In this document: piece after piece, positions 44,009 through 50,319 of the stretch
Layout of the letters: each line of letters opens with the position of its first letter
How positions within the stretch are numbered: the stretch's first letter is position 1
DNA from: Bdellovibrionales bacterium
Lineage (GTDB): Bacteria; Bdellovibrionota; Bdellovibrionia; Bdellovibrionales; UBA1609
Direction: 5' to 3'
NCBI GenBank assembly: GCA_027317865.1
Contig: DAHVQG010000003.1
Span: forward strand, 128,001 to 192,000
DNA: 64,000 nt
The notes under the pieces: model-generated
Databases searched by the model: none
What the model saw: only the letters and a program-made list of their open reading frames with translations
What the model was told of the DNA's origin: nothing
Program-made: the position numbers and the translations under genes

Positions 44009-45217
44009 TTAACTTTGGTTTGCGCGCTTAAAGATTGCTCTAACGCTCGCGCCGATGACTTCTCCGTTTTTACCTAAACGATTCGAAGGGATCACTTTGC
44101 CATCGTGAAGCTGCGCAATTGTTTTTACGACAACCGACCCAAGCCCTACTGAAATTCGACCGCCCGCTTTCGCATCAATAAATCGAGTTGTGCGTCGTTC
44201 GCCGTAGTCTTTAAGTGCTTGTGCGGAAAACCCTGGCCCGTCATCGTTCACAAATACTTCGACGTGATCGCCGAGTTTGTAGTCGATTGTGATTTCGTTC
44301 CGGGCAAAACTGAATGCATTTTGAAGCAGGTTTCGAAAAACCCGCTTCAACAATAGTGCGTTACCATTGACGATTGCCGGCGTGGCCGGAGCGTTATTGC
44401 GAACTTGAAGCATTGTCTTCGTTTTTAACTGTTGTGTATCGAAAACTTCGAGTTCGTCTTCTATAATTTCCGTTACGTCGACGGACGTTTTGCTGATATC
44501 GGTATCCGCCCCCGCGAGTTGACTCATCAACAATAAGTCATTGACCAAAGTTTCAATATAATTCGCTTCTTTTTGCGACGTCACAACAAGCTCGCGTTTT
44601 GAGTCTTCGGCAAGACGGCCCTGCTCATCGGACAATAAAGATAAATTGTTCTGCATTGAGGCGATCGGCGTTCGTAAATCGTGCGCAAGTTCTTGTAATA
44701 AGCGAGTGCGCGATTTTTCTTTCGATTTCAATTCGTCGAAAAGCTTTTTAAGTAAAACAATTGCCGACAATGCCGACCCCAACAAAAATGCCGAAACAAT
44801 AGCGAATGCAAAAAGTAATATGGGACGATGATATGGCGGATGTGAGCGCTTTTCTAACGATCGGGAATGTTTTGATAAAACATGCGGCCAGCGAGGTGAG
44901 AGCGCTATATACATCGTGTTTTTGTCGGTCAGTTTTTCAATAATAATGGGCGGCTTGTGGCGCCAAAAGGCGGTGGATTCAGTCCCATTTGGGAGAGTGA
45001 CCTTACTGAGCTTGAAGGGGAGAGGACGATTTGTTGAGCTGCCGGATACCCGTCCGTTTGCATCAAAAACCCAGGCATTAAATTGCGGTGGGTGATGAAC
45101 AAAATTCCTTCGGTGCAGTTGAAAAAAAAGTTGAATAATAAAAAAGCTTAAAACCAAAAATAGAGCGGTAAACCCGAGACTGATAATCAAATATTTTCTC
45201 AGAAGCGGCAGCTTCAT
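44009..45217 (-). CDS. Membrane sensor histidine kinase
   Basis: Two TMs, ELAHDLRTP H-box, NLLQNA, DDGPGF, GLG. Confidence 0.9.
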   Translation of the reverse strand: MKLPLLRKYLIISLGFTALFLVLSFFIIQLFFQLHRRNFVHHPPQFNAWVFDANGRVSGSSTNRPLPFKLSKVTLPNGTESTAFWRHKPPIIIEKLTDKNTMYIALSPRWPHVLSKHSRSLEKRSHPPYHRPILLFAFAIVSAFLLGSALSAIVLLKKLFDELKSKEKSRTRLLQELAHDLRTPIASMQNNLSLLSDEQGRLAEDSKRELVVTSQKEANYIETLVNDLLLMSQLAGADTDISKTSVDVTEIIEDELEVFDTQQLKTKTMLQVRNNAPATPAIVNGNALLLKRVFRNLLQNAFSFARNEITIDYKLGDHVEVFVNDDGPGFSAQALKDYGERRTTRFIDAKAGGRISVGLGSVVVKTIAQLHDGKVIPSNRLGKNGEVIGASVRAIFKRANQS

Positions 45218-45885
45218 TTTTTATCCAAACGATAACCGATACCGTATATCGAACGAATGACAATTTCTTTGAGACCGGCTGCTTTTAGTCGCGTGCGCAG
45301 ACGGCTTACGTGAGAATCGATAGTGCGATCGAAAATTTCGCCATCGCGATGAAGTGCCGTGATCAGCGCATCGCGAGTTACGACTGATCCTGAGTGTTCC
45401 ATTAGGTATTGTAGTGTATCGAATTCGCGGCGATTGAGGTCCACTTCAACCTTGCCGCAAAACACGCGACGCTGATTGATAACCAAAGTAACGTCGCCAA
45501 AGCATAATTGCTCGTCGCGCTGGATGGGCTCTTTTAGCGCGTTTTTAATTCTCGCAATTAATATTTTCGGTTTAAACGGCTTTTCGACGTAATCGTTGGC
45601 TCCGGCGCTGAAGCCGGCGAGCACCGCTTCTTCGTGGGTTTGCGCAGTTAAAATTACGACGGGTACGCGCGACTCGGATTTTCGCAGGTGTTTGCAAAAT
45701 TCGAGTCCGTTGCCGTCGGGTAAACCGAGATCAAGTAGTACTAAATCGGCCGTCGAATTTTCGTTCGCTTTAAAAGCTGAGGTCAAATCGCGCACCCAAA
45801 TAACGGTATGCTTTTCGCTTTCGAGCGTGAGTTGCAAGCTTCGGCCTAGAACAGGGTCATCTTCGACTAAAAGAATTTTGCTCAT
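45214..45885 (-). CDS. OmpR-family response regulator
   Basis: VEDD, LDLGLPD, KPF, RTIDSHVSRLR, YGIGYR. Confidence 0.93.
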   Translation of the reverse strand: MSKILLVEDDPVLGRSLQLTLESEKHTVIWVRDLTSAFKANENSTADLVLLDLGLPDGNGLEFCKHLRKSESRVPVVILTAQTHEEAVLAGFSAGANDYVEKPFKPKILIARIKNALKEPIQRDEQLCFGDVTLVINQRRVFCGKVEVDLNRREFDTLQYLMEHSGSVVTRDALITALHRDGEIFDRTIDSHVSRLRTRLKAAGLKEIVIRSIYGIGYRLDKK

Positions 45886-46113
45886 TGTTCTGATATATTA
45901 CTCACAAATGATTGCAGAAGTGTGGATTTTTTAATCGCGTCTACGTTCAAGTTCATCCATTCAACTGTATCAAAATGAGACGTATTTTTATAATTCCGGC
46001 TGAGCCATAAAGTCTCAACAGTTTGATGGTAATTTGAACCTAACGCTCCACGAGGAGCCAAACATTCGGCCTAATAAATGCGCGCTAAAAAGCCGAAATA
46101 GAAGGAGTCATAT

Positions 46114-46452
46114 ATGAGTAAAAATAAAATTGTAGTAAGCCTGATGGTCGTATTGTTCGCATTCGGTTCGGCCGTAGCTTTGGGGCAACCGAACCGTCGG
46201 CACCATCCGCCGTTCGGCTTTTTAATGGGTGCCTGTGTCGCGACAACGATGGCGCAAAACGGTTCGGCGTTTCCGCTGCAGCAAATGATCCAGCATATTC
46301 AGCAAAACATTCAAAATAAACAAAATGGTAAGCCATTTGTGAAACCAAATTTAGATGCCGCAACTCGTGCGGCCATGAAGGCGGCATTTCAAACATGCCG
46401 GGGCGAACTGCCCTTTCCGCATTGGCAACATCCAGGAGCAAATAAATCATGA
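46114..46452 (+). CDS. Small secreted basic protein
   Basis: Signal peptide, AAGGAG SD, Cys pair; ATGA overlap with the next gene. Confidence 0.7.
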   Translation: MSKNKIVVSLMVVLFAFGSAVALGQPNRRHHPPFGFLMGACVATTMAQNGSAFPLQQMIQHIQQNIQNKQNGKPFVKPNLDAATRAAMKAAFQTCRGELPFPHWQHPGANKS

Positions 46453-46937
46453 ACGGAAATTTGGCGCGGCTCAAATCATGTATCAGCAAAATCGGTTTTA
46501 TGATCGCGGGCGTGGTGGTTTTTGCTGCCGCTCCCGCATACGCTACGCTTGGTGGTTCGGTTGATACCATTCAAACAGATGTTCACGCGCTACACGCACG
46601 AGTCATCGCCACGCAGCCGCACGCTCTTTACTCGGTTCACGAAATCACCTATGGCGCGACCAAGGTCCGGGAATACGCAAATACAAACGGAATCGTTTTT
46701 GCGATCGCGTGGAACGGGCTTACCCATCCCGATCTGTCGAAACTATTGGGAACATATTATGCCGGCTATAAGGCAAAAATTCAGTCGAGACCGCCGCAGA
46801 TTAAAGGTGAACTGCTGCGCACATTGCGCGTCGGCACGTTAGTTGTTCAGATGGGCGGCCACATGCGCGACGTCGTTGGGCGTGCATATGATTCGTCTTT
46901 GATACCATCTGGGGTTTCGTTAAGCGACATTAAATAA
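46449..46937 (+). CDS. DUF2844 family secreted protein
   Basis: AYATLGG, VREY...G.VFAIAW.G...PDL..LLG.Y, GHMR...GRAY...P.GV; typical partner of DUF3443. Confidence 0.85.
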   Translation: MNGNLARLKSCISKIGFMIAGVVVFAAAPAYATLGGSVDTIQTDVHALHARVIATQPHALYSVHEITYGATKVREYANTNGIVFAIAWNGLTHPDLSKLLGTYYAGYKAKIQSRPPQIKGELLRTLRVGTLVVQMGGHMRDVVGRAYDSSLIPSGVSLSDIK

Positions 46938-46961
46938 ATGTGATTTATATGAGGTAAATGC

Positions 46962-48248
46962 ATGAAGGAGCAATGGAGCGGCAAAACAATTGCAATAATT
47001 GTCGTCGGTACGTTTCTTCTTCTAATAGGTTTTAACAATTGCGGCAAAAGTTTTGAAGCGGTTGGCGCCGGTGGCAATGGTGCGGCCGGATATTATTCGC
47101 CAACGGGCCAGGTGCTTGCCGAATGCGCGCAATTCGGAACGGGTTCGGACTGGGGGCCTGTCGAAATGGCAAATGTCGTTTTAGGCGGTGAGCCGGCCGT
47201 GACCATTCCGGTTCAAGTGATCGACTCGTCTTATGCAACCGTGCCGTCCAGTTGCCCTTCGCCCGATACGGATCCGAAAACCGCGGGGTTTAACGGCATT
47301 TTAGGCGTCGGTTTATTTAAACAAGATTGCGGGTCTCAGTGTACAACTGATTCAACCACGCAAATGTATTATGTTTGCAACAACAGCTCTTGTACCGCAA
47401 CAACCGCAACACTCGCCGAACAAGTGACAAATCCCGTCGCGGAACTGCCGCAAGATAATAACGGTGTCGCCTTGGTTTTGCCGACCGTCGCATACAGCGG
47501 CGGATACTTTGCGAACGGTTACATGCTTTTGGGGATCGGAACCGAAAGTAATAACTCCCCTGCGGCAGTGACCGAGTTAACTGCGGACGATACGTATGGC
47601 GAATTTACGGATGAATTTAACGGCACGCAAATGTCTGGGTTCATCGATAGCGGGTCAAACGGATATTTTATACCGGCGTCTTCGAAGTATTATCCGGATT
47701 GCACGAACTCCCAATACAATCAGTGGTTCTGCCCTTCTGCAAATTACAGTTCGACTGCCACTGCCATCGGGGTGAATAACAAGCAAGAGTCGTTTCCGTT
47801 TCAAATTGGCAATGCCGAAAATTTGTTTAATTCAGGTAATTTCGCGTTTATGAATTTGGGCGGCGACAGCAGCGGCTCGCTCGGCAGTTTCGGCGATATG
47901 GGATTGCCATTTTTCTTTGGCCGAACTGTATATGTCGGCCTCGAACATACCAAATCACCGATCGGCACTGGCCCCTATTGGGCGTTTTCTGGCGGTCAAA
48001 ATCTGGTTGATGTGAACGGTTCGGTCGCTATCCCGCCGGGCCCGAATGTGATGACCGTTTCGATCGGCAACACGGGTCAGTGCGACGGTGACAGTTACGA
48101 CAATGAACCGTGTACGTCAGTTACGATTTGCTCACCTGGTTCGACAAATTGCCAAACTATAAACAACATTTTGGTCGATACGGGCAGTTACGGTCTGCGG
48201 GTTTTTTCGTCGGTACTTCAGGTCAATCTCAAACCTGAAAATCCGTGA
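46962..48248 (+). CDS. DUF3443 pepsin-like aspartic protease lipoprotein, with blocks in permuted order
   Basis: FNNC lipobox; LAEC..F...WG, NGILG, DNNGV, FIDSGSN, GLPFFFGR, GPYWAF, followed by SVTICSPGSTNCQTINNILVDTGSYGLR. Confidence 0.85.
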   Translation: MKEQWSGKTIAIIVVGTFLLLIGFNNCGKSFEAVGAGGNGAAGYYSPTGQVLAECAQFGTGSDWGPVEMANVVLGGEPAVTIPVQVIDSSYATVPSSCPSPDTDPKTAGFNGILGVGLFKQDCGSQCTTDSTTQMYYVCNNSSCTATTATLAEQVTNPVAELPQDNNGVALVLPTVAYSGGYFANGYMLLGIGTESNNSPAAVTELTADDTYGEFTDEFNGTQMSGFIDSGSNGYFIPASSKYYPDCTNSQYNQWFCPSANYSSTATAIGVNNKQESFPFQIGNAENLFNSGNFAFMNLGGDSSGSLGSFGDMGLPFFFGRTVYVGLEHTKSPIGTGPYWAFSGGQNLVDVNGSVAIPPGPNVMTVSIGNTGQCDGDSYDNEPCTSVTICSPGSTNCQTINNILVDTGSYGLRVFSSVLQVNLKPENP

Positions 48249-48867
48249 TGATCGTCATCTGTGGATGATCGAGTAGCCAACTTGCCGGGAGCTTTTGGCG
48301 CTCCGACTCGACTTTTTTTGCGCCGGCATCAAGAACCCTTTTGAGGATTTCTTTTTTTTGCAAACCGCGAACGAGTAGAGCAATGGCTTTCGTTTTTAAA
48401 AAAGCGTTTGCTCCATAAGAAACCGCGCGTGTGTTCGGCGGCAAATGAAGACGGGCACAGGTGTCGTCGGTGAGTGTCAGACATCCCGAATAAAATTTTT
48501 GCGGCAGGCTCGGTTCATGAAATGCGATGTGGCCGTTCATACCGAGCCCTAAAAATGCGAAATCCGCGCCTCGTTCAGCCGTATCAATAAATTCGAATCG
48601 CGGCTTGAACATCGGCAATTCATCTAAAAAAAATTTTTGAAACGGGCGCTCGGTATTATGCAATATTTCATCAACTTGCACTAAGCGTATCGATTCATCG
48701 ACGAGCTGCGGATTTTCGCGCCATGACCTGTAAAGAGGTCGAGGGGTCTCGCCTGCGGGCACAAAAAGTCGAAACGGGCGTGGAGTTATATTACGGCTTT
48801 GTTGATGGAGCCAATCGTTGGCACAATCAATCCACTCGCGTTCATTTTTACAAACTTCGAAGTTCAT
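48229..48867 (-). CDS. Glucosamine-6-phosphate deaminase / 6-phosphogluconolactonase family (NagB-like)
   Basis: PAGETP..LY, DE, LGLGMNGHIAFHEP, PAS.L..HP. Confidence 0.8.
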   Translation of the reverse strand: MNFEVCKNEREWIDCANDWLHQQSRNITPRPFRLFVPAGETPRPLYRSWRENPQLVDESIRLVQVDEILHNTERPFQKFFLDELPMFKPRFEFIDTAERGADFAFLGLGMNGHIAFHEPSLPQKFYSGCLTLTDDTCARLHLPPNTRAVSYGANAFLKTKAIALLVRGLQKKEILKRVLDAGAKKVESERQKLPASWLLDHPQMTIITDFQV

Positions 48868-48932
48868 ACCTGCGCGTCAGCTCTAGTCCCGCTTTCGCCT
48901 CCTCGCTAAAATTGTAACTGAGGTCTACTGTT

Positions 48933-49637
48933 TTGAAAAAGTGTAATTTAGTAATTGTCGCGCACCCCGATGACGAGACGTTGTTTTTCGGAGGACTTAT
49001 ACTCGCCGATCGTCGCTTCGAATGGCGCGTTGTGTGCGTGACGGATGGCAACGCCGATGGGTTGGGGTCAGAGCGGCACAATCAGTTCGCGCGCGCCTGC
49101 CGGGCGCTCGGCGTTCGACACCATGAATTCTTTGATCTGCCTGATCGATATGACTCGCGGTTATCGCAAAATGAGTTACAAACACGTCTTAGAGGACTTT
49201 ATGATCGTCTAAGACGGGAGGGCCAGTCGCTCCACGATGTTTATACACACGGCCCGCTCGGCGAGTATGGGCACCCCCACCATCAGGATGTTTCTCTTGC
49301 CGTCCATGAAACCCTTGCGCTGCAGACGCGAAAATCATCAAAGGTTTGGGGGGTGGCTTACAATTGTGCAGCTGACCGCGTTCTCGAATTGTCTCACGCG
49401 CATTTCAAGAAAAAGTCCGATATTTTGGCGAAAATTTATTTAGGCGAGACAACCCGGTTTATTCAATTTTTACCGGCAACAAGTGCCGAAGCATTTGCAC
49501 GTTTTAAATTGTCAGAAGTTCGAGCATTGCATGCTTATATATCCGCTAAAACCGCACCGACCGCGCTTTACAAATATAATTGGTTCCGGCCTTATTTGGC
49601 GGCTTTTCGCGAAGCTGTGGTCAAACGTCCGTTTTAG
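48933..49637 (+). CDS. PIG-L family N-acetylglucosaminyl deacetylase
   Basis: AHPDDE, VTDG, YGHPHH. Confidence 0.88.
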   Translation: MKKCNLVIVAHPDDETLFFGGLILADRRFEWRVVCVTDGNADGLGSERHNQFARACRALGVRHHEFFDLPDRYDSRLSQNELQTRLRGLYDRLRREGQSLHDVYTHGPLGEYGHPHHQDVSLAVHETLALQTRKSSKVWGVAYNCAADRVLELSHAHFKKKSDILAKIYLGETTRFIQFLPATSAEAFARFKLSEVRALHAYISAKTAPTALYKYNWFRPYLAAFREAVVKRPF

Positions 49638-49656: not shown

Positions 49657-50319
49657 TTAGGCTGCCGATTGACGGCGTAATTTTTCACGCAATTCTTGCA
49701 CTTCGGCTCTCAGACGTTCGTTTTCTTGCACCAAATCTCGGATCTTTTTTTGAAGTAATTCGGCTGAGTTAATCGCTTTAGCTGCCGGTTGCGCGGTAGG
49801 TATTGAGCGCTCGCTTGTAACAGCGGGGGTGAGGGGAACTGCGGCTTGCGCCAGAAGTTCTTCGATATTTTCAGAAATGATTAATTCAGGAGCGAACTTT
49901 TCGGCTCGCAAGCGGCCGTCGAGCATCATCGCCCGCGCCTCTTCGATAATTTTCAAAAATGCGGCCGAGATTTCGGCTGGCGACGGGGAATTTGTTTTAA
50001 AAAGATCGTCAATTGTCCGTTTTTGGGCGTGGGTGTGAGTTTGTAATAGGCGGCTGCTCTGCTCACTGCTTAAGCCGTGCATGGCCGTCGCAAGAGTTAA
50101 TACGGCTAGGCCCTTAGAAACTTCGGCGATTGTGTTGTCGTTCCAGTTCAACATTTTTTCGATTGTAAGCATTTTTTCGCGCACGGCGCGCGCCCACCGA
50201 GGATCTTCGCCTTCTATGATGTTTAAAAAATTATCCTGCTTTTGTTTACCGCAGGTTTCGATTAGCTGAATAAGTTGTATAAAGCCGCCTGGCCTTTGGT
50301 AGCGCGATAACATACCCAT
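49657..50319 (-). CDS. FliG C-terminal-like domain protein with terminal coiled coil
   Basis: EDP.WA..VREKMLT.E..L...D..I, LA.A..G, KII..AR.M...G.L pattern resembling FliG_C. Confidence 0.6.
   Translation of the reverse strand: MGMLSRYQRPGGFIQLIQLIETCGKQKQDNFLNIIEGEDPRWARAVREKMLTIEKMLNWNDNTIAEVSKGLAVLTLATAMHGLSSEQSSRLLQTHTHAQKRTIDDLFKTNSPSPAEISAAFLKIIEEARAMMLDGRLRAEKFAPELIISENIEELLAQAAVPLTPAVTSERSIPTAQPAAKAINSAELLQKKIRDLVQENERLRAEVQELREKLRRQSAA

Follow-up and report, generated by a model that had tools for sequence, protein, structure and literature searches.

A Bdellovibrionales DUF3443 protein with the two blocks of its domain in reversed order, a probable natural circular permutation of a pepsin-type fold

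The 64,000-nucleotide stretch of Bdellovibrionales DNA analysed here (the window; contig C33:128001-192000 of a 2.65-Mb, 42-contig genome) carries on its forward strand, at 46962-48248, an open reading frame (ORF) for a DUF3443 protein in which the two blocks of the domain stand in exchanged positions. The question raised by this locus is whether the exchange is real DNA and, if real, whether the ORF still encodes a folded, working protein and how the order came to be changed. We found that the block order of the DUF3443 domain in this ORF is reversed as compared to the family and that the rearranged order is real DNA common to several strains. The gene looks intact and, as sequence and models suggest, is probably functional, that is, a natural circular permutation of a pepsin-fold domain. 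Our main reading is that of an exported, probably lipid-anchored DUF3443 protein having a bilobal pepsin-type fold with a circularly permuted mature domain, to which we assign a probability of about three in four.

Reversed block order and its DNA

The Pfam family DUF3443 (PF11925) matches the protein with 385.3 bits against a cut-off of 25 (E 3.6e-115) in two stretches, the best of which pairs residues 48-342 with profile positions 73-367 of 367. On scanning the parts alone, the first 342 residues gave profile positions 73-367 (E 3.5e-96) and the last 86 residues gave a match of residues 361-422 to profile positions 4-64 (E 1.2e-20, 74 bits), and no relevant Pfam match was seen for the first 45 residues. 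No single collinear match over the 367-position model was found for the 428-aa protein, and the NCBIfam scan returned no family for it. Two domain hits in reversed model order had been predicted in an earlier note on this DNA, which had also placed the motifs where we found them (SPTGQVLAEC from 47097, DSG at 47646, end of PYWAF at 47987). BLASTP against the syntenic orthologue of the same genus (G006:C7; L002 1135-2388) gave three pieces in swapped order, where window residues 4-33 correspond to orthologue residues 6-35, residues 348-427 to 41-120 (69% identity) and residues 48-342 to 123-417 (59% identity). In the orthologue no more than two residues separate the cut ends, and no other reordering was seen. 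The canonical order is signal, tether, block A (the N-terminal strand and the first Asp-Thr-Gly loop) and block B (the flap, the rest of the N-lobe and the C-lobe with Asp-Ser-Gly and the C-terminal strand), whereas the permuted order is signal, half of the tether, block B, the other half of the tether as a 20-residue linker, and block A. The features of the gene are as follows.

46962..48248, forward strand: DUF3443 ORF, 428 aa
46962..47042, forward strand: putative signal peptide up to a lipobox-like Cys, residues 1-27, motif FNNC, read from the sequence
47043..47096, forward strand: first part of the tether, residues 28-45, Gly/Ala-rich, now running into block B
47097..47987, forward strand: block B, residues 46-342, with flap hairpin, remaining N-lobe, entire C-lobe and C-terminal strand
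47133-47147, forward strand: FGTGS flap-like motif, within block B
47295-47306, forward strand: GILG, within block B
47646-47654, forward strand: DSG, putative second catalytic motif, within block B
47988..48047, forward strand: linker newly placed between the blocks, residues 343-362; its homologous counterpart in canonical relatives is the second half of the N-terminal tether
48048..48242, forward strand: block A core, residues 363-427, now C-terminal, with the N-terminal strand of the fold, a Cys-rich hairpin and DTG
48177-48185, forward strand: DTG, putative first catalytic motif, within the block A core
48243..48248, forward strand: Pro428 codon and TGA stop, opposite the tail-coding DNA of the convergent gene
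47096..47097, no strand: junction 1, tether to block B, bridged by contigs
47987..47988, no strand: junction 2, end of block B to linker and block A, bridged by contigs
48239..48240, no strand: junction 3, block A to downstream DNA, position uncertain within 48237-48243

The segment 47988-48239, which holds the linker and block A, contains SVTIC...CQTINNILVDTGSYGLR...NLKPE. The export signal with its lipobox cysteine is a probable one, read from the hydrophobic N-terminus and FNNC; the region of residues 1-27 falls in the BLASTP piece that pairs with orthologue residues 6-35, FNNCGK being common to both proteins.

Contigs from Logan, made by another assembly pipeline, matched the stretch in 6 runs of 3 studies, none of them listed as RNA, and runs X1, X2, X4 and X5 were compared. 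In X1, record 1 (46400-48199) bridges junctions 1 and 2, and records 2 and 3 (48170-48289), which are two alleles with 5 differences, bridge junction 3. In X2, junction 1 is bridged by record 7 (46892-47649) and junctions 2 and 3 by record 8 (47705-48515), and in X4 the separate records 10, 11 and 12 bridge junctions 1, 2 and 3, respectively. The shorter side of each bridge has at least 50 bases. X1 may be the source sample of the window DNA; X2 and X4 carry single-nucleotide polymorphisms (SNPs) relative to the window and so represent other strains having the same order. In the 90%-identity protein cluster to which the ORF belongs there are 8 distinct proteins from 8 contigs, 96-100% identical and all permuted. 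In a repeat search over 46400-48900 the repeats had at most 21 nt (71-84% identity) and stood away from the junctions, and no trace of a duplicated block was seen; no joints or loose ends are reported for the Logan contigs at the locus. It may be added that the two X1 alleles at 48170-48289 have depths of 15 and 4.7. Among the changes, 48241 A>G is synonymous (Asp) in the convergent gene and turns Asn427 to Ser in the permuted protein, and in the convergent gene those at 48258 and 48259 give Met204Leu and Gln203His.

On comparing the relatives, the canonical order was found throughout. The syntenic orthologue is canonical, with the regions matched by the two query blocks only 6 bases apart, and its locus shares with the window the DUF2844 gene upstream and the convergent isomerase-like and PIG-L genes downstream. 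The order is canonical also in all 3 paralogues of the window's own genome and in 119 of 120 homologues among the matches listed, the remaining one being the window's own cluster. The same holds for all 43 long forms (750-2140 residues), each with a single canonical A-B domain, and for 89 of 89 loci having both blocks (from 91 loci, two of them truncated where a contig ends, with the window's own not counted; the 89 include four duplicates). Among 401 sampled genomes of the phylum, 52 had a match, and of the 80 match rows 63 were near-full and collinear and 16 partial. The window ORF alone among these 80 rows starts at profile position 73 inside a long open frame; 8 partial matches lacking the profile start lie in open frames of 81-296 aa, too short for block B and a trailing block A. 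The permutation is thus confined, among the relatives compared, to one species-level cluster, and is fixed in it. The earlier note had taken uniformly canonical close relatives as the mark of an artefact; the relatives are all canonical and yet the DNA is real, which makes that rule wrong.

Among the long forms, P0147, P0148, P0150, P0151 and P0153 (976-990 aa) have the DUF3443 domain at the N-terminus followed by ~560 extra residues and the remaining 38 have it at the C-terminus, so extensions are tolerated at either end of the domain. Tandem DUF3443 arrays are also present (four matches in G387:C389:5762-11652 and two in G056:C65:3331-5606), which shows local duplication in the family.

Predicted fold and constraint

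The model of the canonical orthologue (95 sequences) has a predicted local distance difference test score (pLDDT) of 91.3 and a predicted template modelling score (pTM) of 0.86. A Foldseek search with this model returned plasmepsin II, BACE1, penicillopepsin and endothiapepsin at E ~1e-11. In VIA-align it superposed on pepsin-family chains with Z 22-24 and a root mean square deviation of 3.0-3.3 A over 266-283 residues, where model residues 52..417 spanned residues 1..~322 of the mature chains at 13-18% identity. The models thus support a complete bilobal pepsin-type fold with inter-lobe sheet for DUF3443 proteins.

For the permuted protein a block-wise alignment (A4) of 7 permuted variants, 61 B-only and 12 A-only rows was used and checked row by row. 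The AlphaFold2 model has a pTM of 0.85, and pLDDT falls below 50 for residues 1-47 only. Means over 10 residues range from 72 to 97 in block A (82-97 over 361-420, and 70 for the last 8 residues of the protein), and the linker (72 over 341-350 and 82 over 351-360) is below most of block A. The strands at 363-369, 383-390, 397-406 and 410-415 mirror the canonical ones at 56-62, 76-83, 90-99 and 103-108, and strands 52-58 and 61-73 form the flap hairpin, whose tip carries FGTGS. A sequential alignment of the permuted model (~40..~347) with pepsin chains (~59-65..~326) gave Z 13-15. By this alignment the chain is cut close to residue 60 of pepsin, immediately ahead of the flap hairpin. On docking blocks A and B as separate chains with their own alignments, a score of 0.96 was obtained as against 0.01 for the best of 3 controls; the mark is one reached by 116 of 157 solved complexes and by 2 of 215 mismatched pairs. 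The docking runs agree in at least 92% of contacts with a partner pLDDT of at least 85. The docked interface includes 227-234 (FIDSGSNG) and 400-419 (around VDTGS), and the contacts of lowest error include that of the GILG strand 112-115 against ILVD 403-406. Such a pass denotes likeness to the pepsin fold and is no proof for the permuted copy. The permuted chain is thus predicted to keep the same fold, with block A packing onto block B and both Asp motifs in one interface, structure prediction being one of the checks that the earlier note had proposed. Another alignment (A3, with 63 A-only and 61 B-only rows) was discarded as MAFFT had set the DSG of the B rows onto the DTG of the A rows; this misalignment is consistent with an internal lobe duplication of the pepsin fold that is still visible in DUF3443 sequences.

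In the pepsin/retropepsin topology the N- and C-terminal strands are adjacent in the inter-lobe sheet. A short linker could therefore join the old N- and C-terminal strands as neighbours in that sheet, and the cut would fall on the surface, in the stretch that leads up to the flap. The membrane anchor would now enter the fold beside the flap and not at its base, and one may speculate that the orientation of the enzyme or the dynamics and gating of the flap could change as a result.

The sequence was then examined for signs of constraint. Of the conserved columns (at least 90%) of the 95-row canonical alignment the permuted protein keeps 99 of 104, where the other rows keep 86-104 with a median of 101. 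All 24 invariant columns are kept, including both aspartates (D406 and D229) and the cysteines, and the D-T/S-G motifs of these aspartates are present and unvaried across the permuted variants. The frame is open in 8 of 8 variants. The SNPs in the contigs fall in 11 codons, 7 being synonymous and 4 non-synonymous (N141G, F227I, P245R and N427S), which gives a ratio of non-synonymous to synonymous polymorphism (pN/pS) of 0.17 and a binomial P of 0.005 against the 77% of non-synonymous sites expected; block A, in its new place, holds two of the synonymous ones. Variable positions, counted among nine permuted rows and small in number, are distributed as follows.

Signal and tether: 6 of 45 positions
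Block B: 9 of 297 positions
New linker: 4 of 20 positions
Block A core: 2 of 63 positions
Tail: 1 of 3 positions

This pattern is as expected for a working protein with a free linker. The permuted protein would then still be an aspartic endopeptidase of the cell envelope acting with or on its DUF2844 partner, as suggested by the predicted fold, the invariant Asp motifs, the probable export signal, the many conserved cysteines and the presence of that partner.

Several points weigh against the reading of a working circular permutant. All the junction-bridging contigs come from one study, and X5, from a second study, covers 47223-47958 along with other pieces and reaches no junction, being uninformative either way; the 8 protein variants may also not be independent of the study that gave the bridging contigs. 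The SNP count is small (11 codons), and single low-depth contigs may hold errors. By sequence there is no match to PF00026 (Pfam Asp) at E up to 1, and the 95-member canonical profile gave three chance-level hits only (E 0.33-0.46) against all solved chains, so that the name pepsin-like, as given by the earlier note, stands by fold (the Z of 22-24 of the orthologue model) and falls by sequence profile. The flap position is a Phe in the permuted protein, the corresponding residue in pepsin being Tyr. The confident model and docking may reflect the knowledge that the programs have of solved pepsins, alignment A4 has just 12 A-only rows with A unpaired with B, and the meeting of D229 and D406 at the cleft is a prediction read from the motifs in the interface. 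No duplicated or half-truncated intermediate is seen among the 43 long forms, which is weak evidence. Lastly, the three canonical paralogues in the genome could make the permuted copy dispensable, the case for its function is drawn from sequence and models, and the protease activity of DUF3443 proteins in general is putative.

The last points also favour the strongest rival explanation, in which the rearrangement is real and the gene a recently broken, dead copy that has not yet decayed, being neutral or mildly harmful with the paralogues as a buffer. In addition, the arrangement is present in one 90%-identity cluster only, and the permuted variants diverge in at most 4% of residues, which leaves little time for decay to show. 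A dead copy would nevertheless have to account for the open frame in all 8 variants, for the retention of both Asp motifs and of 99 out of 104 conserved positions, for the excess of synonymous changes and for variation that is concentrated in the linker and signal and not in the core. It would also have to account for the confident models and for three in-frame junctions with about one residue lost or gained at most, an outcome that is easier to obtain if selection has filtered it. We consider a dead copy improbable.

Origin of the rearrangement

There is then the question of how the permuted order came about. P0002, the closest of the canonical relatives (64% identity in block B), has a tether that passes from the lipobox through a Gly/Asn/Ser stretch to QLVDSNGSV and is collinear with window residues ~27-43 and then ~346-356. 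Residues 28-45 of the permuted protein correspond to the first half of this tether; the linker, from residue 348 on, matches orthologue residues 41 on and QLVDSNGSV of P0002. The two halves are thus found in the window after the lipobox and after PYWAF, and one gene's tether cut in two argues against a fusion of two genes. Over its full length, block A is closest to block A of the orthologue. Three ancestral breakpoints, each used twice, are seen (tether/A, A/B and B/downstream), and the junctions lose or gain about one residue at most as compared to P0002 and the orthologue. We infer an event within a single gene, with three breakpoints, as the source of the rearrangement.

The earlier note had restored the ancestral order with a protein ending two residues past PYWAF and a neighbouring gene ending in TD-stop. 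This restoration is probably a few bases off at junction 3, because the canonical relatives inspected all end directly after the aromatic PYWAF-type motif and the neighbour's tail TDFQV is closer to the TDFEID of the orthologue than to TD-stop. The ancestor would instead have ended in PYWAF-TGA followed by AAAT..., and its A/B boundary would have read ...CC-TGAAAAT. Such an ancestor fits with the E-N that P0002 and the orthologue read at the A/B boundary, like window residues 426-427, with the tail TDF(Q/E) that is conserved between the neighbours in the window and the orthologous locus and is encoded opposite 48238-48246, and with the canonical ends after the aromatic motif. Junction 3 would then fall within a shared heptamer TGAAAAT, with ATTC shared at junction 1 and TT at junction 2; with the coordinates taken exactly as in the earlier note, the microhomologies shrink to 2, 1 and 0 bases. 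The event may have followed either of two routes. In the first, a tandem duplication would be followed by the loss of both ends (permutation by duplication), for which two more deletions must by chance have re-created the boundaries of the duplication. In the second, a single replicative event of template switching would have made three switches, possibly at short microhomologies, and the exactness would follow directly.

A two-gene chimera, in which block A comes from an adjacent second DUF3443 gene that was truncated and fused while the first gene lost its own block A, is very improbable. DUF3443 genes do stand in tandem in some genomes (four in G387:C389 and two in G056:C65), and the block A core has 54-70% identity to the paralogues, similar to the 68% to the orthologue. 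The core, however, is all that the paralogues match (43-65 residues); the match to the orthologue extends over 80 residues and takes in the tether and the A/B linker. In the orthologue, moreover, the end of canonical block A and the start of block B lie within two residues. There is also no second signal peptide or lipobox before block A, and what is one tether in P0002 and in the orthologue stands in two separate parts here.

The weakest rival, an artefact of assembly, binning or data handling with a true genome that is canonical, could draw on the codon-exact swap, the canonical order of all relatives and the short-read origin of the bridging contigs in one study, and is largely refuted by contigs of an independent pipeline from three samples that bridge each junction and carry strain SNPs (with two X1 alleles across junction 3), by eight different protein sequences on eight contigs with the same order, and by breakpoints free of repeats, joints and loose ends; we reject it on the strength of the three-sample contigs with their SNPs and of the 8 permuted variants. 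Of the two readings that the earlier note had left standing, the genuine circular permutant is therefore favoured over the artefact by the Pfam order, by the bridging contigs, which supply the junction-spanning DNA that it had named as a check, and by the structure prediction.

Gene context, known systems and meaning

The ORF lies in a set of genes given below with their Pfam matches.

46114..46452, forward strand: 112-aa ORF with hydrophobic N-terminus, its stop overlapping the start of the DUF2844 gene
46449..46937, forward strand: DUF2844 gene, the upstream partner (PF11005, E 3.6e-35)
48229..48867, reverse strand: convergent gene, glucosamine-6-phosphate isomerase / 6-phosphogluconolactonase-like, 212 aa (PF01182, E 1.3e-10)

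Of 80 canonical DUF3443 loci, 70 have a DUF2844 relative upstream in the same orientation. The 112-aa ORF has no Pfam family above the cut-off and no tblastn relative in the 91 loci; the orthologous locus lacks it and has a GGDEF-type gene upstream. The ORF could be the operon's first gene and specific to the lineage. The last 20 bases of the convergent gene overlap the permuted gene, which confirms the neighbour noticed earlier at the ORF end, and its product is 60% identical to that of the syntenic gene in the orthologous locus. This 212-aa protein is far below every NCBIfam cut-off. It is short and divergent, and its gene stands head to head with one for a PIG-L de-N-acetylase (PF02585, E 8.7e-22; region 48229-49637), a pair that is conserved in the same-genus genome G006. 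Further out, an OmpR-type response regulator (Response_reg and Trans_reg_C) is encoded at 45214-45885, divergently upstream of the operon, and a 220-aa protein with a FliG C-terminal domain at 49657-50319 downstream. A promoter and terminator scan of 45800-49000 gave counts at the level of shuffled sequence.

As compared to canonical DUF3443 proteins (G006:C7 and P0002), the permuted protein belongs to the same family by its hidden Markov model match of 385 bits and by block identities of 59-69%, with the same lipobox-like motif, the same Cys pattern, the same DTG, GILG, flap and DSG motifs, and the same DUF2844 gene upstream and flanking genes. It differs in the reversed blocks, in the tether that is split with one half serving as internal linker, and in ending with block A and one residue instead of the PYWAF-type end. 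With the pepsin family A1 (pepsin, endothiapepsin, rhizopuspepsin, plasmepsins and BACE1) the canonical DUF3443 model shares the whole bilobal fold, and the DUF3443 sequence has one D-T/S-G motif per lobe and hydrophobic-hydrophobic-Gly motifs, both of which are described for A1 peptidases in the available text of PMC2761423. The differences are the lipoprotein-type signal, the many extra cysteines and the Phe at the flap of DUF3443, and the permuted order here. The same source (Rawlings and Bateman 2009), in the text available, reports A1 pepsin homologues in seven gammaproteobacterial genomes, without signal peptides. The shewasins described there are likewise bacterial proteins of pepsin architecture, but they are true A1 members by sequence as far as that text goes, whereas DUF3443 proteins carry probable export signals and are not detectable as A1 by sequence. 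DUF3443 loci are present in genomes labelled Nitrospirota, Thermodesulfobacteriota, Acidobacteriota and Bdellovibrionota-type, among others.

Circular permutation and the pepsin fold are each well known. The swaposin of plant aspartic proteases, the plant-specific insert, is the textbook example of a natural circular permutation tied to such enzymes and is explained by duplication in the available text of PMC3320104, but it permutes an accessory saposin-like helical domain and not the catalytic pepsin fold. The same text gives DNA methyltransferases as natural circular permutants by duplication, with duplicated and half-truncated intermediates documented. The relation between homologues and the candidate origin are the same there as for the permuted DUF3443 gene, whereas here no intermediate was found among the 43 long forms, the signal peptide stayed, the gene ends are unchanged and two internal blocks were swapped. 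In the literature searched, which included few subscription journals and some sources in part only, no report of a natural permutant of a catalytic pepsin-type domain was found, the link between permutation and aspartic proteases being the swaposin, and no main text bore the name DUF3443.

A fuller claim can be offered only tentatively and is doubtful as a whole, namely that this is the first natural circular permutation of a catalytic pepsin fold to be found, that the enzyme is active with a changed membrane orientation or flap gating, and that it arose by one microhomology-guided template-switching event with three breakpoints and not along the classical path of duplication with later truncation. 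If true, one active-site aspartate would come from the extreme C-terminus, the cut would lie between the first Asp loop and the flap, the lipid anchor would enter beside the flap, and the event would be young, with a canonical and fully syntenic orthologue surviving in the same genus. The locus is an unusually clean case for the origin of permutations, being recent, intragenic and codon-exact at three breakpoints with the export signal in place, and the canonical orthologue in identical gene context allows a direct comparison. It is also a natural experiment on whether the N-lobe can be assembled from both ends of the chain and on what effect a tether next to the flap has. For the family, the predicted fold adds weight to the view of DUF3443, a large unstudied family of the cell envelope, as a family of pepsin-type proteases paired with DUF2844.

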